A DNA stretch of 63,822 bases, the filler included, from an uncultured Methanosarcinales archaeon (GTDB lineage Archaea; Nanobdellota; Nanobdellia; Woesearchaeales; CAYSVS01), in assembly GCA_964434475.1 (NCBI GenBank). It is 10 parts of 10 records of this genome, joined end to end, with 100 filler letters (N's around TTAATTAATTAA, not from the genome) between each part and the next. Parts side by side here need not be neighbours in the genome. Positions count along the whole stretch, not along the records: positions 36,201 to 42,659 come from CAYSVS010000066.1; 9 more parts are not named here. One strand, given 5' to 3'. Of this stretch, positions 36,444 through 60,464 are shown one piece after another. The position numbers and the translations under genes are program-made. Each line of letters opens with the position of its first letter. The first letter of the stretch is position 1. Under the pieces are notes generated by a model. That model was not told the DNA's origin and searched no databases. It saw only the letters and a program-made list of their open reading frames with translations.

Positions 36444-36463
36444 TAACATCAGGATCCTTGTTA
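36444..36463. repeat. Miniature attC-like cassette junction TAACATCAGGATCCTTGTTA
   Basis: Identical copies at 37426, 55988 and 57439; variants at 56551, 60445 and, reversed, 50403 and 54751. Confidence 0.8.
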
Positions 36464-36654: not shown

Positions 36655-37350
36655 TTAAATTTCAAGAAGAAGTGCTTTATGATCAGAAATATTTAAACCC
36701 AAACATGAAAAAGATTTTAATTTAATTTTTTTTGGAATAAGGAAATAATCAAGACTGTATTTTGCAGGCGGATAAGAAATATATTTTTTTATCTGTCTTG
36801 AACAAACATATTCTTTATCTATTAAATTATAAATTATTTTAGGATCTCTTATGTTAAAATCTCCAATAATTAAAGGATTAATATTAAGTCTTTTAGCATA
36901 ACTTAAAGTTTCTTCAAGATGCAATTTACTAAATAAGTCATCTTGAGAATAATGAACTACTAAAATATTCTTTAAATTATTATCTTCGATTTTAATAGAC
37001 AAAATTCCTCTTGTATATTTATCATCAGGATGTTGCTTTAATTTTTTCTTTTTTACTTCTAGAACAGGTATGTTCGATAGTACTGCAATACCTTCGAAAC
37101 AATCAGGATTTTTTGGAGTTTTATTAACTTGATTAACGTCCATTGTTTTTCTAAAAACGCAATGTTTAAAACCTAAAATTTTGTTTAATTGTTTGGCTTG
37201 GTTATTTCCTTTAGAATTAAACCGTAAATCATCTCTTACTTCTTGAAATGTAACAATATCGGGATTATGTTTTTGAATGAACTTAATAATCTTTGATTTT
37301 CTTTTATCAAAATCATTATAATTCCATAAATTCAAATTTAAAATTTTCAT
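36655..37350 (-). CDS. Endonuclease/exonuclease/phosphatase (EEP) family protein; cassette cargo
   Basis: ILNLNLW, PDIVTFQEV, GIAVLS, IIGDFN, LDY, SDH. Confidence 0.9.
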   Translation of the reverse strand: MKILNLNLWNYNDFDKRKSKIIKFIQKHNPDIVTFQEVRDDLRFNSKGNNQAKQLNKILGFKHCVFRKTMDVNQVNKTPKNPDCFEGIAVLSNIPVLEVKKKKLKQHPDDKYTRGILSIKIEDNNLKNILVVHYSQDDLFSKLHLEETLSYAKRLNINPLIIGDFNIRDPKIIYNLIDKEYVCSRQIKKYISYPPAKYSLDYFLIPKKIKLKSFSCLGLNISDHKALLLEI

Positions 37351-37425
37351 AGTCTAACAACTATTTCAATTATTATTTAAGTTTTGCTTTTTATTTAAAA
37401 AATAGGACTCCTTATTTATTGTAAT

Positions 37426-37445
37426 TAACATCAGGATCCTTGTTA
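37426..37445. repeat. Miniature attC-like junction
   Basis: TAACATCAGGATCCTTGTTA exact copy. Confidence 0.8.
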
Positions 37446-37494
37446 TGTGGGGAGACTGCAAGTCGACCGACCAAAGGGACAGTTTGAAAACCAT

Positions 37495-37749
37495 TTACTT
37501 TTTCTTTTCAAAATTTATAAATGAAGCAACTAGTACGGATTCAATTGTTGTGATTAAGATTGCAAAAAAATCTGATGGTCCAGGAAGAAAAAAATCAAAT
37601 AATTTTACAGATCCATTTAGAAATGGACCTAAATCTTTAGGTAAACTAGAAAAGAAGATTTGTAAAATATATCCTATAAATAATAGGCTGAGAAATGAAA
37701 CTACGAATTTTATTATGATTTTTTTATGTTTTTTAAAATTAAGTTTCAT
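37495..37749 (-). CDS. Small two-TM hypothetical protein; cassette cargo (start re-assigned to ATG 37749)
   Basis: MKLNFKKHKK...; the longer ORF-track version runs through the attC-like site; TATA-like TTTATATA about 25 bp upstream. Confidence 0.6.
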   Translation of the reverse strand: MKLNFKKHKKIIIKFVVSFLSLLFIGYILQIFFSSLPKDLGPFLNGSVKLFDFFLPGPSDFFAILITTIESVLVASFINFEKKK

Positions 37750-37805
37750 ATTTGTGAATAGTAATGAGTTTATATAAATTTTTGGGAGGGTTTTCAAATT
37801 GCGTA

Positions 37806-37915
37806 TAACATCAGGATTTAGAGAAGTTTCGAACGAAGTGAGAAATTTGGGGAATAATCGGGAAATCGCTTGGCGATTTAGCGTAGCGACCGATTTTCCC
37901 TCTAAATCCTTGTTA
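37806..37915. repeat. Long (110-bp) attC-like site
   Basis: TAACATCAGGATTTAGAG ... CTCTAAATCCTTGTTA: same ends as the mini junctions, with an extended stem and internal hairpins. Confidence 0.75.
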
Positions 37916-38143
37916 GTTTCGTTTCCCATACGTAAGTGTGGGAAACCTGCGTCCGCAGAGTCGGGAAAGAGGGCGTTCTATCTAATGAGCGAATGCGATA
38001 CATCAAGAACAAGAATTAAAGGGGACAATTTTAATTTAGCAAAGCCAAAGGCTCTTTTAAAAACATATTTAGGAGTTCCAAAAAACTATTTGAATATTCT
38101 TTTAATTGCAGAAATTATTGCTTCAATTAATTCGGCAATCATT

Positions 38144-38905
38144 TTAATCTAATAATGCATTCAATTTTCCATAGAATTTTTGACATTCGCTAACTGAACC
38201 TGCCCAAGTTATAGCGTTGAAATTAAAACTTAGATCTTTTTTTCTTTTTCCTGTATCGTATACAATCTTCAATACTGATTTATGTGGTCTAAAACTTTGA
38301 CTATCTGTATCTCCACCTAAAAATCCCATAACTAAACCTCTTGCTAAACTAGGAGTGTATGAGTCATCAGTTATTTCAATATTTTCTATGTCTTCAAATT
38401 TAATTTCAAATTTTTCTTTATTAGCATTCTTAAAAATGACTTTTTTGTTAGCTATTGCTAACCAACCATTTGTTGGATCAGACACTTCTTTATGACCACC
38501 AAAAAAAGTTACTGAATTTTTAATAACTGCATTTGGAATTGAAACATCTTCTAGGGTTTTTCTATCTTTTCTAACTTGATCTGCTGCCCAAGATTGAATG
38601 TCTAATTTACATTTTTTACATTTATATGCTCCAAGTTGCCCACCACATTCAGGACATTTTCCATTTAATTTTGCTATAATACTAACATTTTTTGCTTTCC
38701 CAGCAACATCCCAAAAACCTAGTCGTTTACCCGTTTTTGATTTTTGTGTAGAACTTTCTTCATCTTTATCATCTGATTTTGGGCTTTTAACAAAACCAAT
38801 AATTCCCAAAGGTAAAGCAACTATGCCGATACCCATACCTAAAGTTAGAAATCCACCTATGGACAACCACCATTTATATTTTACACAAAAATCTATGAAT
38901 GTCAT
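38144..38905 (-). CDS. Membrane-anchored protein with Zn ribbon and possible PH-like domain; cassette cargo
   Basis: N-terminal TM, CPECG...CKKC, G.L.I.NKKVIF...I.FEDI..IEI pattern. Confidence 0.6.
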   Translation of the reverse strand: MTFIDFCVKYKWWLSIGGFLTLGMGIGIVALPLGIIGFVKSPKSDDKDEESSTQKSKTGKRLGFWDVAGKAKNVSIIAKLNGKCPECGGQLGAYKCKKCKLDIQSWAADQVRKDRKTLEDVSIPNAVIKNSVTFFGGHKEVSDPTNGWLAIANKKVIFKNANKEKFEIKFEDIENIEITDDSYTPSLARGLVMGFLGGDTDSQSFRPHKSVLKIVYDTGKRKKDLSFNFNAITWAGSVSECQKFYGKLNALLD

Positions 38906-38993
38906 TTAACTTATAAAAAGAATGAGTTATATTTAAATCTTTCGGTGTATATTCAGTGAAAAGGCAATATATAAATAGGGCATATTTAGTTCC

Positions 38994-39257
38994 ATGGATA
39001 AGTTAGGACTAATCTCATGGATTTTAAGAGGCTCACAGAGAAGAGTAATTTTTAAAGTAATTAAAGGAAAAATGATTCCAGCACAAATATATCAAGAAGC
39101 AAGAAAAATAAATGATAAAATTACTAGAAACAATGTAAGCGATATTTTAAGAGAAATGAGAGAACAAAAATTAGTTGAGTGCATAAATCCAAAGGAAACG
39201 AAAGGCAGAATATACCAATTAACTAAGAAAGGGCAGGAAATCAAGACAGAAATTTAA
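38994..39257 (+). CDS. Small archaeal winged-helix transcription regulator
   Basis: R..IFK, P.QI, NVSDILREM....LVECINP....GRIYQLT.KG. Confidence 0.8.
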   Translation: MDKLGLISWILRGSQRRVIFKVIKGKMIPAQIYQEARKINDKITRNNVSDILREMREQKLVECINPKETKGRIYQLTKKGQEIKTEI

Positions 39258-39292
39258 TTATTTTTAAATACTAGCGATATTTCTTTTAATCT

Positions 39293-40309
39293 ATGGATAA
39301 AAATAAATATTATGATGAAATTAAACAATTGCTAAATAAAGATTTAGACTTAAACAATAATATTAATAATCCATGGTTAGCATTTTTTAAAGATGATCAG
39401 TTTAATCTTCAAATATGCAATAACATAGTTAATTCTATTAAATATGTTAAAGAAAAAGATGAAGCTTTTTTTAATAAAATATTAAAACGTATTAATTCTA
39501 GTGACTATTGCGAAATATCATCAGCATTATCAGAAATAAGAGTTTTTTATTTTTTGCACAAAATTAATTTTAATGTAGAAACAAAAACTAATGAAAATGG
39601 AGCAAAACCCGAATATTATCTTGATAAAGATTATATAGTCGAAGTAAATGCACCAAATTATAGAAAAGAAGAATTAGTTTTATTAAATGATTTTAAGAGT
39701 AAAACTAATTCTCAATGTATAACTGAACATAGTACTACTCCATTTGGAAAAAAAGATAAGTTTACTGAGATTACTGCAAGTAATGTTATATCTAAAATTG
39801 CATCTATAAAAGGAAAAGAACATCAATTTTCAGATAATAAAAAGAATATTCTTTGGTTAGACTTTCAACATCCAATTTGGTGGTGCATAAATAATCCTGA
39901 GAGATCATTACCTTTTATTTCAAAGCAAGGAGGAATTTACTCAGGGGAATTTTGGTATTCTTTTTTTGGTTGGAAAGGAGCATTAATTTATGAAGGAAAA
40001 GTAGCAACTGTAATGGAACATCCAGGGAGATTTAATCAAAATAATACCAAGATTGATATGGTTATCATTTCATTACCCTCAAAAAATATCTTATTTCAAA
40101 ATCCAAATGGTAAAAAAATTGAAAATAGCTTTTTTGACAAAATCTTAGGTTTATCTTTTTTATCATTGGAATATTCTTGGGTGAATTATCCGTCTGAAGA
40201 TCTCAAAGAAAGATTATTACTTATATATGACCAGATTATGTCTTTTAATAGAGATTTATTTTATATTCCTAACTCTATTGAAAAAGATATAAAAGATTAT
40301 AATATTTAG
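39293..40309 (+). CDS. Hypothetical protein (possibly PD-(D/E)xK-like fold); cassette cargo
   Basis: 338-aa ORF; SE...KPE...VEV pattern only loosely resembles restriction-endonuclease folds. Confidence 0.5.
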   Translation: MDKNKYYDEIKQLLNKDLDLNNNINNPWLAFFKDDQFNLQICNNIVNSIKYVKEKDEAFFNKILKRINSSDYCEISSALSEIRVFYFLHKINFNVETKTNENGAKPEYYLDKDYIVEVNAPNYRKEELVLLNDFKSKTNSQCITEHSTTPFGKKDKFTEITASNVISKIASIKGKEHQFSDNKKNILWLDFQHPIWWCINNPERSLPFISKQGGIYSGEFWYSFFGWKGALIYEGKVATVMEHPGRFNQNNTKIDMVIISLPSKNILFQNPNGKKIENSFFDKILGLSFLSLEYSWVNYPSEDLKERLLLIYDQIMSFNRDLFYIPNSIEKDIKDYNI

Positions 40310-40403
40310 TTTTTGGAACTCCATTTAACTTTTTTAAAATTGTCCCCTCTCTGTTTTTTAGCCCTCTTTCCCGATTGAAACTAACAAGTATTAAACGACA
40401 CAC

Positions 40404-40772
40404 TCAATTTTTAGAGCATTTGTTACAAATGCCTTTAACTTCAATTTGAAAACTAGTTATAGATCCAGGAATTTTATCTTTAAGAAAATCTAACGAATCA
40501 ATGTTAAAGTGGATTACTTTTCCAGTTTTCTCGCAAACAAAGTGGCAATGACTTTTATTTTCTTTTGAATAAACCAATTTACCATCGCAAGCATATGAGA
40601 AAATGTTTCCATTTTTCCTTAATGTTTTTAGAAATCTATATATTGTGGCAAGCCCGATATTTTTATCAACTGATTTGACGTTTTCATAAAGGTCTTCAGC
40701 AGTAAAAAAAGTTTTGAATCTGTTTATTTCTTTCCCGATAATCTTTTTTTGCTTTGTACTTCTTGTTATCAT
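40404..40772 (-). CDS. Fur-family regulator (Zur-like)
   Basis: TKQK, TAEDLY, IGLATIYRFL, HCHFVCEKTG, GICNKC; divergent from the zinc ABC operon. Confidence 0.9.
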   Translation of the reverse strand: MITRSTKQKKIIGKEINRFKTFFTAEDLYENVKSVDKNIGLATIYRFLKTLRKNGNIFSYACDGKLVYSKENKSHCHFVCEKTGKVIHFNIDSLDFLKDKIPGSITSFQIEVKGICNKCSKN

Positions 40773-40840
40773 CCTTATTGATAATGAGAGCCAGTAAAGT
40801 TTATAAAGATTTTGATTTATTTATATGCTTGGTGATTATT

Positions 40841-41782
40841 ATGAAGATTAAAACTTTATTATTACTAGGAATTCTTATATTAACATTATTTCTGGTTGGG
40901 TGTAGTCAGGTTGCTCAAGAACAGAAAGATGACAAAATTGATGTGGTTGTGAGTATCCTTCCTCAAAAAGCATTTGTAAATGCAGTTGGAGGTAATTTGG
41001 TGAATGTAAAAGAACTTATTCCACCAGGAGGAAGTCCTGCAACATACGACCCAAAACCAAGCGATTTAGCATTGGTTGAAAAAGCCGACATTTATTTTAG
41101 AGTAGGGCATATATATTTTGAGAAATCCCATGTTGATAAATTTGCTGGATTGAATCCGGATATGAGAATAGTTGATACTTCTGTTAATGTAGAGTTGAGG
41201 CATTTTGGAGGACACGAAGACCATCATCATGAGCATGAAGGGGAAGTTGAAGAACATGAACATGAACATGAACATGAGGAAGATCGTCATGAAGGAGTTG
41301 ATCCACATCTTTGGCTTTCTCCAATGCAGGTAAAAAAGCAAGTCGATGTTATTGCCCAAACACTTGTGCAAGTTGATCCAGCTAATGTTGATACCTATAA
41401 CAGCAATGCTGAAAAATTCAAAAAAGAGCTAGATGCTTTATACACTGAAATAGAATCAACATTCTCTGAATTGAAAACAGACAAACTGATGGTTTTCCAT
41501 CCTGCGTGGGGCTATTTTGCAGACGAATATGGCTTGGAGCAGATAGCAATAGAAGACTCTGGAAAAGAGCCTACAGCGCAAGAACTTCAGCACATAATTG
41601 GGGAAGCTAAAGAAGAAGAGATTAAAGTAATCTTTGTTCAATCGCAATTCAGTAAGGAAACTGGTGAATCTGTTGCAGAAGAAGTTGGGGCAGTTGTTGT
41701 TTCTATTAATCCATTATCAGAAGATTACATTAATAACCTAAGAAATGTTGCTACAACAATTGCAGAAAGTTTAAATAAATAA
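40841..41782 (+). CDS. znuA: Zinc ABC transporter substrate-binding lipoprotein
   Basis: Lipobox LVGC, His/Glu-rich loop, DPHLWLSP, FHPAWGYF; GGTGA ribosome-binding site before ATG 40841. Confidence 0.92.
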   Translation: MKIKTLLLLGILILTLFLVGCSQVAQEQKDDKIDVVVSILPQKAFVNAVGGNLVNVKELIPPGGSPATYDPKPSDLALVEKADIYFRVGHIYFEKSHVDKFAGLNPDMRIVDTSVNVELRHFGGHEDHHHEHEGEVEEHEHEHEHEEDRHEGVDPHLWLSPMQVKKQVDVIAQTLVQVDPANVDTYNSNAEKFKKELDALYTEIESTFSELKTDKLMVFHPAWGYFADEYGLEQIAIEDSGKEPTAQELQHIIGEAKEEEIKVIFVQSQFSKETGESVAEEVGAVVVSINPLSEDYINNLRNVATTIAESLNK

Positions 41783-49105: not shown

Positions 49106-49199
49106 TAACAAGGGATATACGGTTCAGCCCTCGGCTCGGGCTTCACCCAAATTTTTCTTCCACTTCGTTCCAGAAAAACTTCGTATATCCCTAACGTTA
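49106..49199 (+). repeat. Canonical-looking attC site (94 bp)
   Basis: (GTA)TAAC-AA-GGGATATACG ... CGTATATCCC-TAAC-GTTA(AAA) with internal hairpins. Confidence 0.75.
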
Positions 49200-49359
49200 A
49201 AATCAATTATGACTACGGGGCACACACAACTAAAATAATAAAAACGAAAGGAAGGGGCACACTCACTATTGAACTACACTCTAAAATATTTTAATCAATT
49301 GAAATCTAAATTGGTTAAAACAAGAAAATTTATAAATAAATCAATTATTTAGAATAGGA

Positions 49360-49761
49360 ATGGGAAACTGTGATAATTGTGGGAAAAAATTCGGATTTCT
49401 TGGTCCTGCTATAGCACCTAATCTAGGAATTGCAAAAGGGAAAGGTTTTTGTAGCATAAAGTGTTATAGGGAATTCAGCAAAAAGAAAAAAGTTGAAACA
49501 GAAGGAAAAGTAATGGAATTTAAATGCAAATGCAACCAATGTGGAAAAATATGGCATTATTTACCTAAGGAAATAAGCGACCTAAGGACACAACAGATTG
49601 GTAACGCTATGATTGGTGCTAGTATGTGTTGTAATCCATTTGGAGCTCTTTTTTCTAATAAAGCAATAGAATCTAGAAGACAAATAGAAAAATTCAACAA
49701 GTGTCCTGAGTGTGGATCAAGTGATATTAAAAAAGAAGAAGTATGGTATGAGAAAAAGTAA
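49360..49761 (+). CDS. Cys-rich zinc-binding hypothetical protein; cassette cargo
   Basis: CDNCG..FCSIKC, CNQCG, CPECGS. Confidence 0.7.
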
Positions 49762-49987
49762 CCTTTTTGTTATATTATCCATATTTTTAATAAAAGAATT
49801 GCACCAAAAAAGATTGTCTCCAAAATTAAATAAGATAGGAACTCGTTGTCGGTTTTATCCATCTTGTTCAAATTATGGCATTGCTGCGTTAAAGAAATAT
49901 GGTTTTATCACAGGATGGATTAAAACAATTAATAGAATTTGGAGATGTAAACCAAACAATTATGATTCATGTATCGATTTTCCTTAA
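49748..49987 (+). CDS. YidD-like (membrane protein insertion efficiency factor) protein; cassette cargo
   Basis: [17 protein letters not shown]...G......RIWRC.P signature. Confidence 0.8.
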
Positions 49988-50235
49988 ATTTTAGTATTTA
50001 ATCTTCTTCTATCAATTTCTTTAAGAACTCTATTTGAATCGTATGCAATAAGCCAATCAAACCAACCATCTAATCTATCAATATTTAAATAACCTTTTTT
50101 ACGCATAAACTCTAGAAATAATTTTTTATCTTCTTCTATAATGTTTTTTCTTTTTTCATGAGATCTAAGTTTAATAACAAATATCCTAACAGCTTCCCAA
50201 AAAGATTTATTTTCTTCCATAAATAATAATATCAA
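49984..50235 (-). CDS. Small hypothetical protein; cassette cargo
   Basis: 83-aa ORF convergent with the YidD-like gene, inside the cassette arms. Confidence 0.5.
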
Positions 50236-50402
50236 TTTATTACATTATTAAAATTTTCTATTTTGTGTCAGTCTCAAATTTACTGTAAGTGTGCCCCTTG
50301 ACGATTGTCCTTGATGTTTGCTCTTTCGATTGGACGACGGTGTGCCCCTACGTCATAACTTTGCGGACGCAATTTTCCCACACTTCGTATGGGAAAAGAT
50401 TT

Positions 50403-50421
50403 TAACAGGCCGCCGATGTTA
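50403..50421. repeat. Miniature attC-like junction (reverse orientation) TAACAGGCCGCCGATGTTA
   Basis: Reverse complement reads TAACATCGGCGGCCTGTTA. Confidence 0.75.
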
Positions 50422-50583
50422 TTTGCAATTTAGTTTAAGTTTAAACGTTCTTTTAGAAAAAGAACCAAAAGGGGGGATTTTAGTCCTTCGGACATTTTGG
50501 CTCCCTATGGTCGAAATTTAATATACCTGAAAGGCGAAAAAAACAAAACTTTATATACAAATGTGTTCATTTGTATTTTAGGG

Positions 50584-50730
50584 ATGGCTATGGTATCAAA
50601 AAATGTTACTCTAAGAGTAAGTTCTGAACTTTATGATAAGTATAAATTGTATTGTAAAGAAAAGGGTTTATTAGCTTCTAGACAGTTTGAAATTTTTATG
50701 GAATCAGAGCTAAAAAAGAGAAAAAAATAA
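50584..50730 (+). CDS. Ribbon-helix-helix DNA-binding protein
   Basis: KNVTLRVSSELYDKYKLYCKEKG...SRQFEIFM pattern; TTTATATA promoter upstream; leads the operon. Confidence 0.7.
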   Translation: MAMVSKNVTLRVSSELYDKYKLYCKEKGLLASRQFEIFMESELKKRKK

Positions 50731-50731
50731 G

Positions 50732-51583
50732 ATGAAATTTGTAAAAAAAATAAAACCAAAGTCAAAAAATGTAAAAGAACATTTCTTATTTACAGCTAAT
50801 GCTTTAAAGATTTTAAAACAAATTCCAGATAAAAGCATTACCTTAGTTGTAACAGATCCACCATATAATGTTGGATTGAAATATAATACTTACAATGATA
50901 AAAAAGAATGGTCTAAATATTATGAAGACATGGGTTTAGTTTTAAATGAAATTTATAGAATTTTAAAGGATGATGGAAGTTTATATTTGATTAATTATCC
51001 TGAAATTAATGCTAGAACTTTACCTTACTTAGATAATGCAAAATTAAAAATGAAACGATGGTTGACATGGCATTATCCAACAAACATAGGACATTCTAAA
51101 AAAAATTATACAAGAAGTCAAAGATCAATTTTGTTTTGTACAAAATCTGAAGATTACATATTTAACAAAGATGCAATTGTTCAACCCTATAAGAATCCAA
51201 ATGTTGGTAAAATAAAAAAGTTAATTGAAGCAGGGAAAAAAGGAAGAACACCATATGATACATTATCAATGGAAGATATTTTTGAAATGGATAAAATTCA
51301 AAATCCCGATGTTATTAATATAAATTTATTAAAAAATGTTTCAAAACATCGTGCAGGATCAAAAGATAAAACTGCAAAAGATCATCATCCTTGTCAGTTA
51401 CCTAGTTCACTAATTGAAGTTTTTATTAAAGCTAGTAGTAATGAAGGAGATATTGTTTTAGATTGTTTTGCAGGAACTTTTACAACTTCTGCTGCTGCAA
51501 AATTATTAAATAGAAAATCAATAGGTATCGAATTAGATCCTGAATACACTAAACTTGGTCTTGCGAGGTTGAAAAATGAGTAA
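50732..51583 (+). CDS. Beta-class N4-cytosine/N6-adenine DNA methyltransferase
   Basis: TDPPYN catalytic motif precedes HP.Q.P and VLDCFAGTFTT...GIE SAM-binding motif. Confidence 0.92.
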   Translation: MKFVKKIKPKSKNVKEHFLFTANALKILKQIPDKSITLVVTDPPYNVGLKYNTYNDKKEWSKYYEDMGLVLNEIYRILKDDGSLYLINYPEINARTLPYLDNAKLKMKRWLTWHYPTNIGHSKKNYTRSQRSILFCTKSEDYIFNKDAIVQPYKNPNVGKIKKLIEAGKKGRTPYDTLSMEDIFEMDKIQNPDVININLLKNVSKHRAGSKDKTAKDHHPCQLPSSLIEVFIKASSNEGDIVLDCFAGTFTTSAAAKLLNRKSIGIELDPEYTKLGLARLKNE

Positions 51584-53282
51584 AACAAAATATGAACCTA
51601 TTACTAATAAAGTAGGAGAAACTCAAAAAGGACAAATTAAGGTTCATAGTAGAATTATAAAAGATTTGAGTTCAGGTATTTATAGTTCTCCTGCGAGTTG
51701 TATCAAGGAATTAATAAACAACTCATATGACGCTGATGCTTCAAAAGTTGTTGTTAGAGTCAAACCACTAGATGAAACAATAACTATTTTAGATGATGGT
51801 ATTGGAATGAATGCTGTAGAATTTAATAATAGATTTGCTTGGATTAGTAAATCTTCTAAAAGAGGAGATAAAGGAGAAATAGAACTATCAACTATTTTTA
51901 AAAGACCTTTAATTGGAAAAATAGGAATAGGGTTTATTGCAGTTAGTGAAATTTGTGATGAACTTGAAGTGGAATCTAGTAAAAAAGGAGAGAATTTCAA
52001 ATTTATTGCCTCTATTAATTTTAAAAAGTATCTAACAGAAGATATAGAATTTGTTGATCCTGAAACTGGTGAAAAGGGTTTAGTAAAAGGAGAATACGAC
52101 ATTAAAAAAGAAGAAGAAGATAAGGAAGAACATTATACCTTAATCAGATTAAAAAAAATTAAAAAAAATGTTTTAAACATATTTGAAAACAAAAGAGAAT
52201 TATCACAAATAGCTAAAAATTTAGATAAAAAGAATTATGAAACAGAATCTTTTAATTCAATGTTAGAATTAGTTCAATTTAGGAAAGAAAGACAAAAAAA
52301 AATAAGAAACATAGAAAATGATAATGAATATTTAAAATTTATTTATGATTTGTCGTCATATCTTCCAATAGAGTATTTGGAAAATGGACCTATATCTGGA
52401 ATAAAAGATAAAATTATATCTGAAATAAAAAATCAAATTATAAAGTATAAATTTACAGTTGATTTCGATGGATTTTATTTGAAAAAACCTATTTTATTTA
52501 CAGAAGAAGATAGCCACATCAGAAAGGTATATTCATTTAAAGATGAGATTAAAAATACAGATGTAGATATAAAATTTAAAGGATATTTTTATATGCAACA
52601 TAGTTATATCTCTCCTAAAGAATTTAATGGAATTTCAATAAAAATAAAAGGAGTTCCAATTGCAAGAAGATATGGTTTTGAAACAACTTTTATGGACTAT
52701 CCTAATTCTGCAGACATCATTTTTAAAAGTTGGGTTTTTTGCGAGATATATATTGAAAAAGGACTTGAAAATGCTATGAATATTGATAGACATTCTTTTA
52801 GGGAAACACATCCTGAATACATGGCATTGCAAAATTATATTCATAAACTAATGAGAACAAAAATATTCTCGGAAATCGTGCAAAAAAAGATTTATGAGAA
52901 AAATCAAGAATTAAATGAAGAAAAAAAGATTGAAAAAAAGCAAGAAAGAATTGAAAAAATAAAAAAATCATCCTTAGTAACAATTAAATATGAAGAACCT
53001 GAAAAAATAGAAGAAAAAAAGAAAAATGTTTCAAAAACAGACACCAAATCTCCTCATACCAAAGAACAAAAAAACACATTCATTATTCCAAAAAAAGAAA
53101 CAGAATCAGAAAATAAGATTATTTTAAATAAAAAATATTTAGACTCATTTCCTAAAAAATACAGAGATATATTAGAAGAAGTATTGTTATCGTTTGAGAT
53201 TTCAATTAAAGAATCTAAAGGAGACATAGACAAACTTAAAAAAAAATTTTACGAGTTAGTTGAAAATTCTTTCAGGAGATAA
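51576..53282 (+). CDS. GHKL (MORC/Hsp90-like) ATPase
   Basis: IYS....KELINNSYDA, DDGIGM, GKIGIG, T.I.L, NIDR. Confidence 0.88.
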   Translation: MSKTKYEPITNKVGETQKGQIKVHSRIIKDLSSGIYSSPASCIKELINNSYDADASKVVVRVKPLDETITILDDGIGMNAVEFNNRFAWISKSSKRGDKGEIELSTIFKRPLIGKIGIGFIAVSEICDELEVESSKKGENFKFIASINFKKYLTEDIEFVDPETGEKGLVKGEYDIKKEEEDKEEHYTLIRLKKIKKNVLNIFENKRELSQIAKNLDKKNYETESFNSMLELVQFRKERQKKIRNIENDNEYLKFIYDLSSYLPIEYLENGPISGIKDKIISEIKNQIIKYKFTVDFDGFYLKKPILFTEEDSHIRKVYSFKDEIKNTDVDIKFKGYFYMQHSYISPKEFNGISIKIKGVPIARRYGFETTFMDYPNSADIIFKSWVFCEIYIEKGLENAMNIDRHSFRETHPEYMALQNYIHKLMRTKIFSEIVQKKIYEKNQELNEEKKIEKKQERIEKIKKSSLVTIKYEEPEKIEEKKKNVSKTDTKSPHTKEQKNTFIIPKKETESENKIILNKKYLDSFPKKYRDILEEVLLSFEISIKESKGDIDKLKKKFYELVENSFRR

Positions 53283-53284
53283 AA

Positions 53285-54154
53285 ATGACTAAATATATAA
53301 ATAACTCTTCTGAAAAAAACCATATAAGGGAAAAGTGGGTTGAATTTGCAAAATTAAATTATGATGATGAACATGAGTTTTCAATGATAGGATTAACAAC
53401 GGAAACATTAGATGATGTTAAATTATTTTCAGAACATAATTTATTTGATATTACTGAAACTGAAACAGGACAATTAAGATTTAATAAGGGAAAGTTTAAA
53501 TGTTTTGAAAGTGATGGCTCAACCTGCAGAAAATTAACGGAACTTTTACCTAATGAATTTGCAATTCATAGTGAAATAGGATTTGAAATAGGGAAAGAAT
53601 ATAATAAAGTTTTTGTAGAATTGCATCAGAGTAAAATATTTCCTTGTGATGTGATCAATCTTGATTTCACAGGTTCTATTTCCAATGTAACAAAGAGGAA
53701 TATATTAGAGGTTCTTAATTGGATTTTTAAAATTCAAAATAAATTTCAAAAAAATTTTTCATTATTTTTAACATTTGCAAATGCTAATGGAACAAATGAA
53801 GAAACCATATTTAATAAATTTGAAGAAATAATTCAAGAGAATATTTCTAATGCACATACAAATTTTAGAAATATGTTTGAAACTAAGTTTAATTCTTTAC
53901 AAAATATAAAAAGCAATCATAATCAATTTTTAGCAACAGGAATTTCTAAATATTTAGTTAAATTCTCATCAGAAAACAAATTTAATTTGAAAAAATATGA
54001 CTTTTATTATTATGAAAAAACGAGACATAATATGATTTCATTATTATTCAATTTTGAATTTTCTAATTTAACAATTCCTCAAATTGATATATATAAAGAA
54101 GATTGTTTGAAATGTTTAGATGACATTAAGAAGGTGACAACAAATGAGCAATAA
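53285..54154 (+). CDS. Hypothetical protein, possible SAM-methyltransferase-like Rossmann fold
   Basis: CFE and CDVINLDFTG, LFLT, YYY...M pattern; tightly coupled in the operon. Confidence 0.5.
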   Translation: MTKYINNSSEKNHIREKWVEFAKLNYDDEHEFSMIGLTTETLDDVKLFSEHNLFDITETETGQLRFNKGKFKCFESDGSTCRKLTELLPNEFAIHSEIGFEIGKEYNKVFVELHQSKIFPCDVINLDFTGSISNVTKRNILEVLNWIFKIQNKFQKNFSLFLTFANANGTNEETIFNKFEEIIQENISNAHTNFRNMFETKFNSLQNIKSNHNQFLATGISKYLVKFSSENKFNLKKYDFYYYEKTRHNMISLLFNFEFSNLTIPQIDIYKEDCLKCLDDIKKVTTNEQ

Positions 54155-54575
54155 TAAAATTTCAGGAGATTTTGGAGAACAAGAAGTTGTTGATTTAGTT
54201 CCTTGTCCTAATTGTAAAAAGAAATTAATGCTTTTACCAAAAAATTATCCTCTTTATGATTTACAATGTACTGGTTGTTCTTTTAGAGTTCAAGTTAAAA
54301 CTAATAATTCAAAACCAAAATCTGAAATATTTGGTGCAGGTTGGGAAATAATCGATAAAGTTTTGAAATCTGGTTTTATAATGCCCCCTTTAATTGCTAA
54401 TTTTAAATGGATCGAGAAAGGTATTGAACATCAAAAAATCATTTTTTATCCTTTTATACCTAAGTCTAATCTTAAGAAAAGACAATTATCATCTACTGCT
54501 AGAAGAGCAAACTATAAAATGTTTAATTATATTGGTCTAGATAAAATTCCAAGTTTTGTTTTATATGAAAAATAG
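54144..54575 (+). CDS. DpnI/Dam-replacing-family PD-(D/E)xK nuclease domain protein
   Basis: G.FGE, CPNC, N.P..DL.C..C...QVK, GA, KR.LS.TARRA; no C-terminal winged helix. Confidence 0.75.
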   Translation: MSNNKISGDFGEQEVVDLVPCPNCKKKLMLLPKNYPLYDLQCTGCSFRVQVKTNNSKPKSEIFGAGWEIIDKVLKSGFIMPPLIANFKWIEKGIEHQKIIFYPFIPKSNLKKRQLSSTARRANYKMFNYIGLDKIPSFVLYEK

Positions 54576-54750
54576 CTACTTCGCCTTTCTTCTTGTCCTT
54601 GATGTGTCGCATTCGCTCTTTCTTATCGGACTAAAATCCCCCGTCCTTCGGACATATAGACTCCCTTTGGTCGAAATAATATAAACTTAAACTAAACTCT
54701 TCGGTTTCCCTTCGGGACGTTGCACTAAACCTCGGTCTTGCAGACGCAAC

Positions 54751-54770
54751 TAACAAGGATCCCGACGTTA
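54751..54770. repeat. Miniature attC-like junction (reverse orientation) TAACAAGGATCCCGACGTTA
   Basis: Reverse complement TAACGTCGGGATCCTTGTTA, two substitutions from consensus. Confidence 0.8.
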
Positions 54771-55987: not shown

Positions 55988-56007
55988 TAACATCAGGATC
56001 CTTGTTA
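55988..56007. repeat. Miniature attC-like junction
   Basis: TAACATCAGGATCCTTGTTA exact copy. Confidence 0.8.
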
Positions 56008-56550: not shown

Positions 56551-56568
56551 TAACATCGCGCGCTGTTA
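56551..56568. repeat. Miniature attC-like junction variant TAACATCGCGCGCTGTTA
   Basis: Conserved TAACATC and TGTTA ends with a different self-complementary core. Confidence 0.75.
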
Positions 56569-56699
56569 GTTTCGTCTGACCTATTGGAAGACCTAAAATT
56601 TAATGCAACGTCCCGAAGGGAAATTTTTGAGTTTTCATAATCGCCGTCCATCCAAAAAACGAAGTGATACATCATGACAAAGAATGAAGGGGCAAAAGC

Positions 56700-57365
56700 T
56701 TATTTTTTCTGAAATAGATAAAATATAAATTGGTATGGTTTTACTTTGGAAGAATCAAAGTATTTGATTCTATCTACGGGTTTAAAGCTCAGTTTGTCAA
56801 GTAACTTTTCATCGTTAACAATATCAATTAGATGTTGTGTGCTCCTATCTACCCTAGAATCTATTTTTTTCATTTCTACAACTTGATCAAAATATTCATT
56901 AGCTAAATAAAATCCGCCTGGTTTTAGTACTCGACCAATTTCTCTAAGTGCTTGAGTGTAGTTTATGCTAAAATTATCAAAAGTCATTTCATTAGAATGA
57001 ACTACATCAAAGAAATTGGATTCAAAATCCATTTGTTCAACCGAACCAACTACTTTATGAACTCTTGGATATTCATCATGTTCAAAATTTTTTGGATCTT
57101 GATCTAATGAATATAAGTTTTCAGGCTTTAAACCATAATAAAGTAGACCTTTACAAAAAACAGAACCTAAACCACATCCAACATCTAAAACAACTTTATC
57201 TTTTACATTCTGAATCAAGTTTTTAAGGAGTGGATGAATTGGTTGAATTACATTATATTTTTGTTCTTCTAAATACATTTGTAATATGCCTGGGTCAGGA
57301 CTATTTCTATGAAAACTTGACAATTCATCTTGATCTTGACCACTTGGTGAATTTTTAGCAACCAT
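56700..57365 (-). CDS. Class I SAM-dependent methyltransferase; cassette cargo
   Basis: VLDVGCGLG, FDVV, ALREIGRVLKPGG. Confidence 0.9.
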   Translation of the reverse strand: MVAKNSPSGQDQDELSSFHRNSPDPGILQMYLEEQKYNVIQPIHPLLKNLIQNVKDKVVLDVGCGLGSVFCKGLLYYGLKPENLYSLDQDPKNFEHDEYPRVHKVVGSVEQMDFESNFFDVVHSNEMTFDNFSINYTQALREIGRVLKPGGFYLANEYFDQVVEMKKIDSRVDRSTQHLIDIVNDEKLLDKLSFKPVDRIKYFDSSKVKPYQFIFYLFQKK

Positions 57366-57438
57366 ATTTTAAAGTAACATGTGGAATGTTATAAAGCTTT
57401 TGCCCCATTTACATTTAGGCGATTACGAAAATTGAAAC

Positions 57439-57458
57439 TAACATCAGGATCCTTGTTA
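57439..57458. repeat. Miniature attC-like junction
   Basis: TAACATCAGGATCCTTGTTA exact copy. Confidence 0.8.
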
Positions 57459-58541: not shown

Positions 58542-58753
58542 ATATTAATAAAATCATTCTTAAATGTATAATATGTCTGTTAAACGTCCCGAACGAAGTG
58601 AGAGCGCAGCGTGGGTCGAGGAATTTTGAAAAAATTCCGAAGAAGTTCAGAAAAGACTTTGCTATCGAGCGAACAAAGTGAGCCATCAAGCAAATACATC
58701 AAGAGCCCCATTCCACAAGAACATTTATATATTTATTTAAATAATTTAATCAT

Positions 58754-59554
58754 ATGCAGAACTCAAATAAATTATGGTATCGATCAAGAGGGTTAGAGAT
58801 ACTAGAATCTAGATTTGGTAATAACTCCATTCAAAATTTTATTGAGAAGAAGTCGATTCATCAAAATGAATTTAGAATACTTGAAATTGGTTTTGGTGAA
58901 GGTAAGTGCCTGATTGAACTTAGGAAAAAATATCCTAACAAAAATATATTATTATATGGCATTAATGACAAAAAGAAAGGCAATATGCATTCTAAAATAG
59001 ATTTTTATAATAATGCTGAAAAATTTGGCCATCCAATTCTAAAAACCAACTTACCAAAGCCATTCTTTTATGATGTTGGAAAAGGTCTCAAATTTGAAAA
59101 TAATTATTTTGATTTGATTATTAGTCAGGTTTGTATTCCATATATTGATAATAAAGCATTTTTATTTGAAGAAATCTGGCGAGTCTTGAAAAAGAATGGA
59201 AAAGCTTTCTTACAAATAGATTCTGAAACTAAAGAAGGATATCCTGATTTCATGAAATTATGTAAAGATACTCCTCGGATGGTAATCTATCAAAATGATA
59301 AAATTATTCCAACAAAAAAAATATTTGATGTTGCTAAAAAGCAAGGATATAATATTAATTTTTCTAGGCAAAAAAATAAGAACGAAAGTTTTATTATTAC
59401 AATGGAGAAAAATCTTAACAAGAAACTAAATTTTAATTTGCTTTTTGATGGCAATTCAACATTATATCTCACCAAGTTAAAGGATACAGACGAGTATAAA
59501 AAACAAAGTGGGGTTTGGTGGGGTACAAGAAGTGTTTTTAAGGTTAAAAAATGA
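58754..59554 (+). CDS. Class I SAM-dependent methyltransferase; cassette cargo
   Basis: ILEIGFGEG, FDLIISQ, EEIWRVLKKNG. Confidence 0.88.
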   Translation: MQNSNKLWYRSRGLEILESRFGNNSIQNFIEKKSIHQNEFRILEIGFGEGKCLIELRKKYPNKNILLYGINDKKKGNMHSKIDFYNNAEKFGHPILKTNLPKPFFYDVGKGLKFENNYFDLIISQVCIPYIDNKAFLFEEIWRVLKKNGKAFLQIDSETKEGYPDFMKLCKDTPRMVIYQNDKIIPTKKIFDVAKKQGYNINFSRQKNKNESFIITMEKNLNKKLNFNLLFDGNSTLYLTKLKDTDEYKKQSGVWWGTRSVFKVKK

Positions 59555-60396
59555 CAGAAAAATTAATACAACAAATACTGAAGGATAATCCCTTTTCAGA
59601 TTTTTTAAAGATTAAAGAGATAAAATCATTAGCAGGACATGGCGCAATTTCTGGAGAATCGTATCTAGTTATAGATGAACATAACAAAAAGTATAAATTA
59701 AGGTTATGTTCAAAAACTAAACAAGCAAAACGAATTGAAAGAAATGTCAAAATATTACCTTATGCATTCCCTAAATTTTATGGCAGAGAAAATAACTATG
59801 TTCTATTTGAATGGGTTGATGGTGATCTTTTTTATGATGTTCTATCTAAACCAATTCCTAATGAAGTTTACTATCAAATGGGAAAACTTGTTGGAGAAGC
59901 TCATGAATTAAATGATATTGATGAATCTAAATCCGCCGATTCATTTTTTGATTCTATGATTAGAAATATTTGTGATGGAGAACAAATTGATAAATCTTTT
60001 ATTGATAAAATTACTAGAAAATATAAAGAGTTAAGACATAAACTAAAAATTGACATAGTCTTAGAAATTAACGATATTCATCCTAGAAACTTCATAATCA
60101 AGAATCGAACAAATCCCAAAAAAACAAAAATTTACTTCGTTGATGAAGATGGTTTTGGGCATAAAATAAAAGGTTTAGGACTGGCAAAACCCTTTTTTAT
60201 TGAAGGTTTAATTAAAACGAAAAAGCAAAAAGATTCTTTTTGGCGAGGTTATAATGAACATCACAGTAATGATTACTTTGACAAAGATTATCAAACATTT
60301 GTGACATTTGTCCAGATTGTTCGTTCAATGGCAGCAAGATCTAGAAACAATAAAGATATATCTGATTTAATAATTATGATAAAAAAATACATCTAG
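59551..60396 (+). CDS. APH/choline-kinase-like phosphotransferase; cassette cargo
   Basis: YKLR, FEWVDG, GKLVGEAH, DIHPRNF (Brenner motif), VDED. Confidence 0.8.
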   Translation: MTEKLIQQILKDNPFSDFLKIKEIKSLAGHGAISGESYLVIDEHNKKYKLRLCSKTKQAKRIERNVKILPYAFPKFYGRENNYVLFEWVDGDLFYDVLSKPIPNEVYYQMGKLVGEAHELNDIDESKSADSFFDSMIRNICDGEQIDKSFIDKITRKYKELRHKLKIDIVLEINDIHPRNFIIKNRTNPKKTKIYFVDEDGFGHKIKGLGLAKPFFIEGLIKTKKQKDSFWRGYNEHHSNDYFDKDYQTFVTFVQIVRSMAARSRNNKDISDLIIMIKKYI

Positions 60397-60444
60397 TGGA
60401 ATGGGGCTCCTTCTAAAAATTAAAAGTCTTTTTTGAATTGAGTT

Positions 60445-60464
60445 TAACATCGGGATCGCTGTTA
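60445..60464. repeat. Miniature attC-like junction variant TAACATCGGGATCGCTGTTA
   Basis: Conserved ends, variant core. Confidence 0.75.

Follow-up and report, generated by a model that had tools for sequence, protein, structure and literature searches.

Integrons are the textbook case of recombination that reads the shape of DNA and not its sequence. The attP(+) site of phage CTX is reportedly single-stranded, folds into a bulged hairpin and is integrated by XerCD. According to the relevant part of Nivina (2016), attC sites are 57-141 bp long, and the corresponding part of Cortez (2010) gives the dif site as 11-bp arms with a fixed 6-bp spacer. The locus compared with these systems here lies in a window of 63,822 nt (the whole stretch of DNA that was analysed), which consists of ten contigs with linkers (N...TTAATTAATTAA...N) between them and is not a single molecule. 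Cassettes are carried by three of the contigs, at 36201-42659, 49067-54821 (in reverse orientation) and 54922-60664. On balance, this region is probably part of an integron-like gene-cassette array of a Woesearchaeota-type archaeon, a judgement made jointly with that on the recombination site proposed below.

The core that separates the cassettes reads ATTG-n5-AAC-ATC-[4-12-nt palindrome]-T-GTTA, and was detected six times in the window (0.04 expected by chance); 66 of 400 genomes of the same taxonomic order also contain it. The sequence ...TAAC ... GTTA... is present at all junctions, in agreement with the integron boxes RYYYAAC / GTTRRRY. The only unpaired bases in the core are the TC right after AACA, and a central spacer is absent. 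Most sites are of a mini type, with an AAC-to-GTTA span of 15-23 nt; of the 65 cassettes, 63 are closed by a site that was typed as mini or long, and in 57 of them it is mini. The long sites, a minority of 79-157 nt in length, share these boxes and belong to the same arrays. The sequence of the palindromic centre varies while the palindrome is kept: junction centres are intact palindromes (perfect over 3 bp) in 57 of 98 cases, the two half-centres of one cassette match in only 3 of 49, and the centres of neighbouring cores differ in 49 of 55 cassettes. Because the junction palindromes are inherited whole, strand exchange can be placed at the TAAC/GTTA boxes, and the complementarity of the cassette 5' end to its own inverse core (see the values for helix 1 below) places it inside the core site. 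Exchange at the tip, in the middle of the junction palindrome, was considered in view of some chimeric-looking centres and rejected for this family, since the centres are inherited intact. When homologous cassettes were compared by eye, no consistent pattern was found as to which neighbour a junction centre travels with. A hammerhead-like motif in the core (CTGATGT) was also dropped, given that the essential A9 is absent and that no Rfam hit was obtained.

The first cassette contig carries two mini cores on the plus strand, one at 36445..36463 (AAC-ATC-AGGATCCT-TGTTA with ATTG in front; -5.4 kcal/mol when folded alone) and one at 37427..37445 (-0.9 kcal/mol alone, not better than shuffles). 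They are followed by a long classical-type attC-like site at 37807..37915 (+), in which the boxes TAAC-ATC-AGGAT...ATCCT-TGTTA enclose a 98-nt structured insert in the middle of the palindrome; the fold of this site (37798-37924) reaches -23.9 kcal/mol (z -4.86). Cassette A begins at 37912..37920 (+) with a GTTA box and helix 1 (GTTTC), the exact complement of 40377-40385 (GTTAGTTTC, 9 nt). Module M1 (37921..37958, +) forms, between helices 1 and 2, a side branch with one small hairpin at 37922-37945 (TTTCCCA-loop-TGGGAAA) and another at 37947-37958 (CTGC-GTCC-GCAG). The left strand of helix 2 (37959..37974, +), AGT followed by CGGGAAAGAGGGC, pairs with 40361-40376, with G·T at AGT/ATT, and is exact over the 14 nt of 37961-37974 / 40361-40374 (TCGGGAAAGAGGGC). 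Module M2 (GTTCTATC..GAGCGAATGCGATACATCAAGAAC|AAGAATTAA; 37975..38019, +) ends in a pseudo half-site GAAC|AAG. The left strand of helix 3 (38020..38034, +; AGGGGACAATTTTAA, 15 nt), with a conserved GGGG start and an otherwise private sequence, is the exact complement of 40334-40348, and that of helix 4 occupies 38072..38088 (+). The cargo comprises three ORFs within 38144..40309, namely 38144-38905 (-), 38994-39257 (+), which has a weak HxlR-like HTH match, and 39293-40309 (+). The right arm (40307..40385, +) then contains, in order, helices 4' and 3', a T-rich spacer, helix 2', ATT, helix 1' and the TAAC box. The arms are of unequal size (left ~177 nt, right ~79 nt), because the conserved modules lie between the helices on the left side only. 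The array ends at 40382..40397 (TAAC|AAGTATTAAACG, +), adjoining fur, znuA and znuC genes; this end is a direct repeat (~16 nt) of 38005-38020.

A preliminary description had reported four nested inverted-repeat pairs at 37912-40385, all of which were recovered in the correct nested order when the first and last 230 nt were compared. The fourth pair (GGAGTTCCAAAAA, 38072-38084 / 40310-40322) is exact over 13 nt, and the 17/16-nt version given earlier is obtained only with a 1-nt indel. The left arm shares 20 9-mers with the reverse-complemented right arm, compared with a mean of 0.48 and a maximum of 6 in 200 shuffles. The pairs described for four other cassettes are likewise present, with 9-mer sharing far above chance. 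On the reversed contig (all features on the minus strand), a long classical-type site (49106..49198) is followed by a cassette with paired ends at 49196..50406, whose cargo includes a YidD-like gene (pairs of 9 and 12 nt and others; 11 shared 9-mers versus 0.75 expected), a mini core at 50403..50420 (centre GGCGGCC), a cassette with four nested helices at 50418..54754 that carries a DNA methylase, a GHKL-type ATPase and a DpnI-like gene (pairs of 15, 15, 10 and 12 nt; 20 versus 0.58), and a mini core at 54751..54769 (AACGTCGGGATCCTTGTTA). The third contig (plus strand) has mini cores at 55989..56007, 56552..56568 (centre GCGCGC), 57440..57458 and 60446..60464 (imperfect centre GGGATCGC). Its cassettes with paired ends are found at 56565..57442, with a minus-strand methyltransferase as cargo (pairs of 9 and 13 nt; 9 shared 9-mers versus 0.59 expected), and at 58573..60448, with a methyltransferase, an APH-like gene and a degenerate upstream junction (a 14-nt pair, 58703-58716 / 60396-60409; 8 versus 0.35).

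On the strand 5'-TAAC...GTTA-3', the last 25-80 nt of a cassette with paired arms match pieces of its first 130-190 nt, and the order inward from the boxes is helix 1 (5 nt), M1, AGT·ATT, a private helix 2 (13-16 nt), M2, and helices 3 and 4. The AGT/ATT G·T pair was observed in all 31 cassettes of one count and in 23 of 25 in another, and mismatches in helix 2 are mostly G·T (41, of which the invariant one makes up 31, versus 2 A·C). In an alignment of 42 copies of M1, 96.5% of cells are paired versus 76.5% after shuffling, with changes on both sides at 8 of 11 pairs. Both modules carry invariant positions, and M2 is conserved across many genomes. Compensatory changes between homologous cassettes, whose absence had been named beforehand as telling against a paired structure, were found in helices 2 and 3. 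In helix 2 they occur in L075, L031, L058 and L057: the CGGGAAAGAGGGC of the window is replaced by CGGGAGAAAGGGC in both L075 and L031 and by CGAGAAAGAGGGC in L058, the two arms changing together. Helix 3 differs between genomes yet stays matched, and covaries in L075 and L053. The outer helices are common to more genomes than the inner ones, and seven cassettes from seven genomes share only their first ~100-120 nt and last ~45-50 nt around unrelated cargo. As judged by sequence comparison, the arms are the conserved unit of the cassettes.

The specificity of pairing was examined in 65 cassettes from 16 genomes. In helix 1, own ends form a mean of 3.09 Watson-Crick pairs out of 5, compared with 1.95 in cross pairs and 2.03 across junctions; 17/65 own pairs and 3% of cross pairs are perfect (p 7.6e-10). 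Helix 2 has 12 or more matches out of 14 in 25/65 own pairs (11 genomes) versus 1.1% of cross pairs (p 8.5e-13). By whole-arm alignment the own pair scores above all 62 cross pairs in 13 of 32 cassettes; the folding gain is -11.9 kcal/mol for own and -3.8 kcal/mol for cross pairs, with the own pair the best of all combinations in 14 of 32 (p 6.8e-8). Thus, the arms are cassette-specific, and the generic repeat that the preliminary description had set up as the opposing case is not what these comparisons returned. About half of the cassettes lack end pairing: own-end pairing in helix 2 falls below 12/14 in 40/65, and 35 of 60 left-arm anchors are without a matching right arm within 6.5 kb, some of them reflecting missed boundaries or truncated loci.

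The cores (~20 nt) alone fold to between -0.8 and -5.4 kcal/mol, 4 of 6 being not better than shuffles. When the two arms are brought together in the arrangement of an excised circle, folding predicts an extended hairpin tipped by the junction, as had been proposed; for cassette A the predicted energy is -63.9 kcal/mol with 71 inter-arm pairs. A cassette circle would, according to this modelling, fold into a bulged hairpin of 50-70 bp with the core at the tip. Whole cassettes of 270-337 nt also fold end to end (z -8.06, -2.42 and -4.49). Most of the hairpin loops are triloops, GAA or GCA, a type whose unusual stability holds for DNA but not for RNA. The TAAC-ATC...TGTTA strand is favoured by energy in 34 of 51 cassettes, with a mean gain of just 1.1 kcal/mol, and also by the wobble pairs and the triloops. 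In classical attC sites, such geometry belongs to the non-recombined strand (Nivina 2016).

Our preferred explanation, which we hold to be somewhat more probable than all others together, is that the paired ends and the core together make up a composite, attC-like site which the cassette carries with it and on which a Xer-type recombinase acts. We infer a mechanism in four steps. A Xer-type tyrosine recombinase would exchange strands at the TAAC/GTTA boxes of two neighbouring cores, and the cassette would be excised as a circle in which its two arms flank one core. The single-stranded circle could then fold into a bulged stem of 50-70 bp with the core at the tip, whereby a core too short to fold alone might gain a stable, structure-specific form for re-insertion. 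In its logic the site would resemble an integron attC, or the attP of phage CTX in its folded, single-stranded form. Since the variable stem lies outside the core boxes and not inside, integration would split such a site into two arms around the cargo. Two earlier suggestions are not supported. The arms do not simply supply a missing recombinase-binding stem, as they are also present in cassettes closed by a long classical-type site (2/6, versus 22/57 closed by a mini site), and pairing across the cargo within the array would not rebuild the inner (L) box, the half-palindromes of neighbouring junctions being mismatched. The arms might mark successive rounds of gene capture, as was also suggested.

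No recombinase was found among the 63 ORFs of the window, and no IntI. In a related genome (G003:C18), a XerA-type recombinase gene adjoins array sites, and its orthologue (68% identical) adjoins an M1 module in G134:C81; this adjacency was seen in these two related genomes only. The array-adjacent enzyme scores 244 bits on the XerA model NF040815 (cut-off 220) and 154 bits on TIGR02249 (cut-off 265), that is, below the cut-off for integron integrases, which carry an IntI-specific extra domain. The Xer-like genes examined in G001, G004 and G005 do not lie beside arrays. A fusion of PrimPol and a tyrosine recombinase in the G004 array (L012:5702-6745) was rejected as a general component, its full-length match being confined to G004 among 5 genomes searched. 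That the only recombinases near arrays are of the XerA type would also be expected if the sites were used as double strands in the manner of dif or Xer modules, the arms being inverted accessory protein-binding regions or cruciform promoters and no single-stranded circle being formed. The core with its inverted TAACA boxes resembles a recombinase core site in size, and the invariant positions of M1 and M2 could bind proteins. We regard this alternative as unlikely: the TAACA-TGTTA spacing, as against the fixed 6-bp spacer of dif, varies between 6 and ~16 nt among mini sites and between ~70 and 150 nt among long ones; helices that are private and yet complementary are left unexplained by sequence-specific protein binding; and neighbouring cores, whose centres differ (49/55), would be barred from a classical exchange between double strands through the overlap region.

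The cargo types (restriction-modification, methyltransferase and toxin-antitoxin-like genes) are typical of cassettes. Some cassettes are cargo-less or nearly so (270-337 nt; 2 of 51 without an ORF of at least 50 aa), and assembled contigs from four runs of two studies, possibly from other organisms, join the left arm straight to the right arm with the cargo skipped. Examples of the joints are 38023->40345 (word depth 55-153) and 38010->40350, with flanks of 21-40 nt in assembled contigs, and serve as a lead only. Shares in the public runs X3-X5 are 0.07 and uninformative on habitat. Such units, together with the unrelated cargo within homologous arms and the wider sharing of outer than inner helices, are what would be seen if a hairpin element had existed first, as an empty cassette, and cargo had entered its loop, the arms being a historical by-product. 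The compensatory double changes in helices 2 and 3 indicate continuing selection for pairing, and the mismatches in helix 2 are biased towards G·T; moreover, the skipped-cargo joints come from assembled contigs with short flanks and possibly from other organisms. As the sole explanation, a by-product is therefore quite unlikely; it accounts for the origin of the arms, not for their retention, and is compatible with a composite attC-like site.

It is very unlikely that the paired ends act in RNA, with the 5' and 3' untranslated ends of an end-to-end cassette transcript pairing to stabilise, process or circularise it. Some features would suit an RNA: the constant position of the invariant G·T pair (which would be G·U), the excess of wobble pairs over A·C mismatches, the covariation of the small hairpins and the long non-coding margins (median 140 nt left, 71 nt right). 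However, of the ORFs of at least 50 aa in 51 cassettes, 56 run with the folding strand and 44 against it, a departure from integrons, whose promoterless ORFs are mostly co-oriented, and one shared cargo gene is oppositely oriented in two cassettes. The GAA/GCA triloops are stable in DNA and not in RNA, and the limits of the arms coincide exactly with the recombination boxes. In an Rfam search of 36201-63822 at E up to 5, the arms matched no family, and only a tRNA and two weak snoRNA-like chance hits were returned.

Some portions of the arms belong to a common family: other cassettes, and 152 of 400 related genomes, contain further copies of M1, M2 and even of the helix 2 found in cassette A. 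A copy of M2 lies at 57520-57560, and helix 2 of cassette A falls partly within a block common to the cassette at 57517, whose right arm has no partner. Inverted matches of 28-32 nt connect arms of different cassettes (e.g., 37984-38015 / 54590-54621 and 37934-37961 / 50358-50385). The chance that the nested repeats are fortuitous, or a generic family pairing equally between any cassettes, is negligible despite these matches and the wide occurrence of M1 and M2. The matches are due to the shared modules, and their inverted appearance comes from the reversed orientation of contig 49067-54821 in the window; cross pairs score below own pairs in every test run, and the 9-mer control (20 versus 0.48) contradicts chance.

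The proposed composite site bears on two questions about integrons, namely their origin from Xer-like recombinases and how genes become cassettes. Regarding the former, a plain Xer-type enzyme would be coupled here with integron core boxes and a variable stem outside them; regarding the latter, there are cargo-less hairpin units, and the same arms surround unrelated genes in either orientation. Split sites may show how gene capture runs without a classical integron integrase. A broader and more tentative possibility, which falls somewhat short of probable, is a gene-capture system, widespread in DPANN archaea, that dispenses with IntI and relies on a Xer-type recombinase, its site being a cassette-borne hairpin cut beside the tip at insertion. 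Such a system might represent either the ancestral design of integrons or an independent second invention of structure-specific cassette recombination, with cargo-less hairpin units as the raw material for gene capture. Cores of 20 nt would escape standard integron finders, whose attC models span about 50-150 nt, so that cassette arrays in DPANN archaea are probably under-counted.

Among known systems, the units differ from MITEs and TIR transposons in that just the 4-nt boxes at the tips are constant and the helices are private; no transposase was found in the window, and no target-site duplication beside the units, which abut shared cores. The variable box spacing also sets the sites apart from dif-type 28-bp sites with two 11-bp arms and a fixed 6-8-bp spacer. 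The pdif modules of Acinetobacter plasmids, in the relevant parts of the published descriptions (PMC6449649, PMC13141974, PMC7399989), are similar in being small accessory modules with short sites at their ends, which are attributed to Xer recombinases and allow modules to be shuffled between replicons without a dedicated integrase. The pdif sites, however, are double-stranded, 28 bp long, constant in spacing and alternate in orientation, whereas those studied here are co-oriented, variably spaced and palindromic, and each module has long complementary arms. Phage CTX attP is said to share with the proposed mechanism the action of Xer-type enzymes on a site formed by two inverted stretches of one single-stranded circle, and the loss of the contiguous site upon integration. 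This comparison concerns the proposed mechanism only, the element here being an array cassette with private stems and not a filamentous phage.

The closest resemblance is to integrons. As in integrons, including integrase-less attC clusters (CALINs) and the archaeal integrons of Ghaly et al. (2022; PMC9668308), accessory genes are arranged in tandem cassettes. Classical-length sites (79-157 nt) with the same boxes occur within these arrays. As in attC, the inverse core ends in ...TAAC and the core begins with GTTA.... There is also an inner inverted pair that varies and yet stays paired, and unpaired bases lie on one arm; these may correspond to the L''/L' pair of attC and to the extrahelical bases that lie opposite the AAC arm on its recombined strand. 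The first bases of integron cassettes also match their own inverse core, and the outermost end pair is this known relation. The preliminary description had held all such end complementarity to be unknown in classical cassettes, which is true of the inner pairs, a new feature, and not of the outermost one, which follows the ordinary integron rule. Long end pairing is set apart from classical bacterial cassettes here by published descriptions and general knowledge. No publication describing such split-hairpin cassette arrays was found in literature searches, and the split hairpin at the cassette ends is apparently an undescribed variant of the integron recombination site. It differs in that ORFs lie in both orientations (56:44), in that XerA-type enzymes and not IntI were found near arrays, and in that most sites measure 15-23 nt from AAC to GTTA, below the 57-141 bp of attC, without its unpaired central spacer of 5-6 nt. 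Conserved modules, M1 and M2, are present in one arm. Finally, 30-70 bp of complementarity extend beyond the core boxes, the variable stem lying below the boxes rather than above them, and as this complementarity runs outside the boxes, the site is split by integration.

The paired ends of these cassettes are real, specific and recurrent. The four nested inverted pairs that the preliminary description had placed in the two ends (arms) of cassette A (37912-40385) were all recovered in nested order, with exact matches of 9, 14, 15 and 13 nt, the fourth reaching 17/16 nt with one indel. The left 230 nt of this cassette and the reverse complement of its right 230 nt have 20 9-mers in common, versus a mean of 0.48 and a maximum of 6 in 200 shuffles, and four other cassettes for which the same design had been claimed were likewise paired (8-20 common 9-mers versus 0.35-0.75 expected). 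Inverted matches of 28-32 nt also occur between different cassettes because certain modules are common to several of them, and they appear inverted in the window because one cassette-bearing contig (49067-54821) is reversed versus the other two (36201-42659 and 54922-60664).

The window (63.8 kb, GC ~30%) consists of ten contigs of ~6-7 kb each and is not a single molecule; contig order and orientation are meaningless. The contigs are joined by artificial N...TTAATTAATTAA...N linkers (7655-7754, 15073-15172, 22195-22294, 29190-29289, 36101-36200, 42660-42759, 48967-49066, 54822-54921 and 60665-60764). The gene content of the window includes TYW3, a TFIIE-alpha-domain protein, OapB/OapC, HerA and a Rad50-like ATPase, which identifies its source as archaeal. 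The array ends at 40385, abutting fur, znuA and znuC. The cassettes carry typical cassette cargo, namely methyltransferases, a set of methylase, GHKL-type ATPase and DpnI-like protein, and an endonuclease-exonuclease-phosphatase family protein, together with many ORFs without a family. One 4.3-kb cassette encodes a DNA methylase (PF01555), a 568-aa GHKL-type ATPase and the DpnI-like protein (50732-54575), which looks like a restriction or defence module borne as a single cassette. Besides, two contig starts (54922-54975 and 60765-60818) are nearly identical over ~55 nt (AGTGTTCAACTACCTAATTTTTTCGG...), the second being followed by a 117-nt tRNA match (60866-60982) long enough to accommodate an intron. 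A lone right-arm signature (ATTGTGTATAACATCAG...) at ~2929-2990 (+), on an array-free contig, may be a solitary site.

Adjacent cassettes meet at a junction site of ~20 nt (mini core) with the pattern ATTG-n5-AAC-ATC-(palindrome)-T-GTTA, which has six occurrences in the window with 3 mismatches or fewer, versus 0.04 expected, looser variants also being present. The core centres vary by site and are usually palindromic (AGGATCCT, GCGCGC, GGCGGCC, GGAATTCC, GGGCCC and GGGCTTAAGCCC). At two long sites of the window, 37807-37915 and 49106-49198 (-), and at several in related genomes, the same boxes hold a structured insert of ~70-150 nt at the palindrome centre; these long sites look like classical attC sites, and the fold of one of them (37798-37924) has a predicted energy of -23.9 kcal/mol (z -4.86). 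The outermost pair of a cassette has the classical integron relation, in that the first bases of the cassette match its own and not its neighbour's inverse core, which places the exchange within the core. For 49 cassettes whose two flanking mini cores differ, perfect agreement between the two halves of a single junction was seen 57 times in 98 (mean 2.32), whereas the half-palindromes of one cassette agreed perfectly in 3 of 49 (mean 1.49 of 3). Thus, the palindrome centre is inherited as a unit and exchange takes place at or beside the TAAC/GTTA boxes; exchange through the palindrome centre itself was rejected for this family, as the centres stay intact. In one related locus (L075, G284:C2), the junctions (~125-145 and ~1265-1285) have shrunk to CTAA-TCCTT-GTTAG, without ATC and the first palindrome half.

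Specificity was examined in window cassettes and in others that the core pattern had located in related MAGs, using sets of 32 and of 65 cassettes (the latter from 16 genomes). Equal pairing with the arms of other cassettes, which had been named as the mark of a generic repeat family, was not what was found: the arms are cassette-specific by alignment, folding, helix 1 and helix 2. When the left arm was aligned with the reverse complement of the right arm, GTTA and TAAC boxes excluded, the two ends of one cassette (own pair) scored 51.8 on average and ends of different cassettes (cross pairs) 37.2, and 13 of the 32 own pairs exceeded all 62 cross pairs involving them; a direct-orientation control gave no difference (37.6 versus 36.5). 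In the same 32 cassettes, joining two arms changed the single-stranded folding energy by -11.9 kcal/mol when they formed an own pair and by -3.8 when they formed a cross pair, and the own pair was best of all in 14 (p 6.8e-8). In the set of 65, helix 1 (the 5 nt after GTTA versus the 5 nt before the cassette's own TAAC) had 3.09 of 5 positions paired and was perfect in 17 cassettes, versus 1.95 of 5 (3% perfect) for cross pairs and 2.03 of 5 for the neighbour across the junction (n = 38). Helix 2, formed by the 14 right-arm nt adjoining helix 1, matched the own left arm at 12/14 or better in 25 of the 65 cassettes (11 genomes; 5 of the 9 window cassettes) and in just 1.1% of cross pairs (p 8.5e-13); the 40 cassettes below this threshold pool missed boundaries with any genuine absence of pairing.

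Further analysis of 31 cassettes with helix 2 at 11/14 or better, aligned on conserved anchors, revealed a common architecture. The left arm runs from GTTA through helix 1 (5 nt), an insert of ~30-70 nt (module M1) and AGT to helix 2, which begins at a distance of 22-82 nt from the G of GTTA (commonest distance, 47); the right arm has helix 2', ATT, helix 1' and TAAC without gaps. The AGT/ATT pairing with its invariant G·T was found in 31/31 cassettes and in 23/25 of a second, motif-anchored set, and helix 2 mismatches amount to 41 G·T (31 being the invariant one) and 2 A·C. The invariant G·T opens helix 2 beside the M1 side branch (37959-37961 / 40374-40376 in the window; the same in 31 cassettes from at least 11 genomes) and may be a recognition feature. 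M1 forms two small hairpins, in which 96.5% of cells were paired across 42 aligned copies versus 76.5% when shuffled and 26-58% with slid partner columns, and 8 of 11 pairs had changed on both sides. Past helix 2 on the left comes another conserved module, M2 (GTTCTATC..GAGCGAATGCGATACATCAAGAAC/AAGAAT..), whose place on the right is taken by no more than ~10 nt of T-rich spacer. Helix 3, with a conserved GGGG start and then private sequence, follows on both sides, and further helices are often present. Many of the hairpin loops are GAA or GCA triloops. Compensatory changes across homologous cassettes, whose absence the preliminary description had named as refuting, were found where both arms are present. 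Helix 2 reads CGGGAAAGAGGGC in the window, CGGGAGAAAGGGC in the related loci L075 and L031 and CGAGAAAGAGGGC in L058, both arms changing together, with one G·T each in L053 and L066 and one A·C in L057. Helix 3 reads GGGGACAATTTTAA in the window, GGGGCAGTTTT in L075, GGGGCAGTTGCATAA in L053 and GGGCAAGAAAAC in L066, and in every case the right arm of that cassette has the matching sequence.

A direct repeat of ~16 nt, AACAAGwATTAAAsG, lies at the end of M2 in cassette A (38005-38020) and at the array end by fur (40382-40397). The same fur-side end in a related genome (L013:8813-8960, G003:C55) carries a cargo-less left arm running through ...CAAGAAC/AAGTATCAAAGG. From these sequences, M2 may contain a secondary half-site, GAAC/AAG.

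With regard to predicted folding, the mini cores, flanked on either side by 8-9 nt of the array, reached only -0.8 to -5.4 kcal/mol, four of six being no better than shuffles. With 90 nt of right arm, the core and 190 nt of left arm placed as in an excised circle, the prediction for cassette A is a structure of -63.9 kcal/mol in which 71 pairs link the arms, the core makes the tip loop and M1 the side branches; for three other window cassettes, 49-55 inter-arm pairs are predicted. Three tiny cassettes, of 270, 337 and 293 nt, are predicted to fold as whole units from one end to the other (z -8.06, -2.42 and -4.49, respectively). Of 51 cassettes, 34 have a TAAC...GTTA strand slightly stabler than the complementary one (mean difference 1.1 kcal/mol, p 0.0012), and this strand may be the one that folds; its geometry is that which in a classical attC belongs to the non-recombined strand (Nivina et al. 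2016).

The arms are widespread and are combined with different cargo. The ~120 nt that open the cassette A left arm, used as a DNA query, matched 152 of 400 genomes of the order holding the related genome G001 (up to 89% identity over 122 nt), and the core pattern occurs in 66 of the 400, these tallies taking in four and two genomes flagged as unpublished, respectively, whose sequence was not used. In seven cassettes with homologous arms from seven genomes, similarity is confined to the outer ~100-120 nt on the left and ~45-50 nt on the right, and the cargo (0.8-3.1 kb) is unrelated at the DNA and translated levels, except for one gene common to L058 and L075. This gene is oppositely oriented relative to the arms, at ~461-1049 (+) in L058 (G335:C5) and ~436-1036 (-) in L075 (G284:C2), in cassette coordinates. 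In 51 paired cassettes, 56 ORFs of at least 50 aa run along the TAAC...GTTA strand and 44 against it, with median non-coding margins of 140 nt (left) and 71 nt (right). Moreover, in assembled contigs from four public sequencing runs (X1-X4, two studies), the cassette A left arm runs straight into the right arm, the cargo being skipped (38010 to 40350, 38023 to 40345 and 38023 to 40354), at a word depth of 55-153 in the source study compared with ~9 for the contigs that make up the window. These contigs resemble abundant hairpin units devoid of cargo, although their flanks are short and they may come from other organisms.

Candidate enzymes were sought in the window and in related genomes. No recombinase domain was found among the 63 window ORFs scanned, and between 2 and 5 tyrosine recombinases are encoded in each of five related genomes. 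A 288-aa recombinase (G003:C18) lies ~1.3 kb from three array sites; its bit score is 244 for the XerA model (cut-off 220) and 154 for that of integron integrases (cut-off 265). An orthologue with 68% identity to it (G134:C81) is ~0.9 kb away from a copy of M1, at a contig end. No convincing array was found beside the Xer-like genes at G001:C43, G005:C67, G005:C30, G004:C9, G002:C2, G134:C6, G098:C13, G381:C50 and G318:C58. In addition, a 347-aa fusion of an archaeo-eukaryotic primase-polymerase domain (PF22548, E 4.7e-21) with a tyrosine-recombinase C-terminal domain is located within a cassette array, immediately after a long attC-like site (L012:5702-6745 (-), contig 4 of G004). A full-length match to it was present in one (G004) of five genomes searched.

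On balance, we lean towards the view that each cassette bears a composite attC-like hairpin site, which is split by integration and used by an Xer-type recombinase. Excision would bring the arms together, the joined arms would fold, and the folded composite site would then be recognized. It is unlikely that the paired ends serve a double-stranded mechanism instead. That the arms are a relic of gene insertion into hairpin units appears improbable, and as an account of origin it is compatible with a split hairpin site. A function of the paired ends in RNA is likewise considered improbable. Chance or a generic repeat is hardly credible, as own pairs exceed cross pairs in the alignment, folding, helix 1 and helix 2 tests.

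Among known systems, a dif-type identity does not fit: a dif site consists of two 11-bp arms around a 6-bp spacer (Cortez et al. 2010), whereas the boxes here are separated by a variable distance, 6 to ~16 nt or, in the long forms, ~70-150 nt. Archaeal attCs are reported to share the structure of bacterial attCs, with no mention of pairing of cassette ends in the text consulted (Ghaly et al. 2022, PMC9668308); no description of a split-hairpin cassette design was found in the literature searched. The present system is unlike integrons in site length (published attCs measure 57-141 bp; Nivina et al. 2016), the lack of a central spacer, ORF orientation and an IntI that was not found. On the other hand, integrons are the closest kind, given the core boxes, the match of a cassette's ends to each other, the type of cargo and the presence of sites of classical length in the same arrays; an inner pair, variable in sequence and usually palindromic, is also present and would be the counterpart of theirs. 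The phage CTX reportedly has a folded single-stranded attP used by XerCD, which would be a functional analogue of the composite cassette site.
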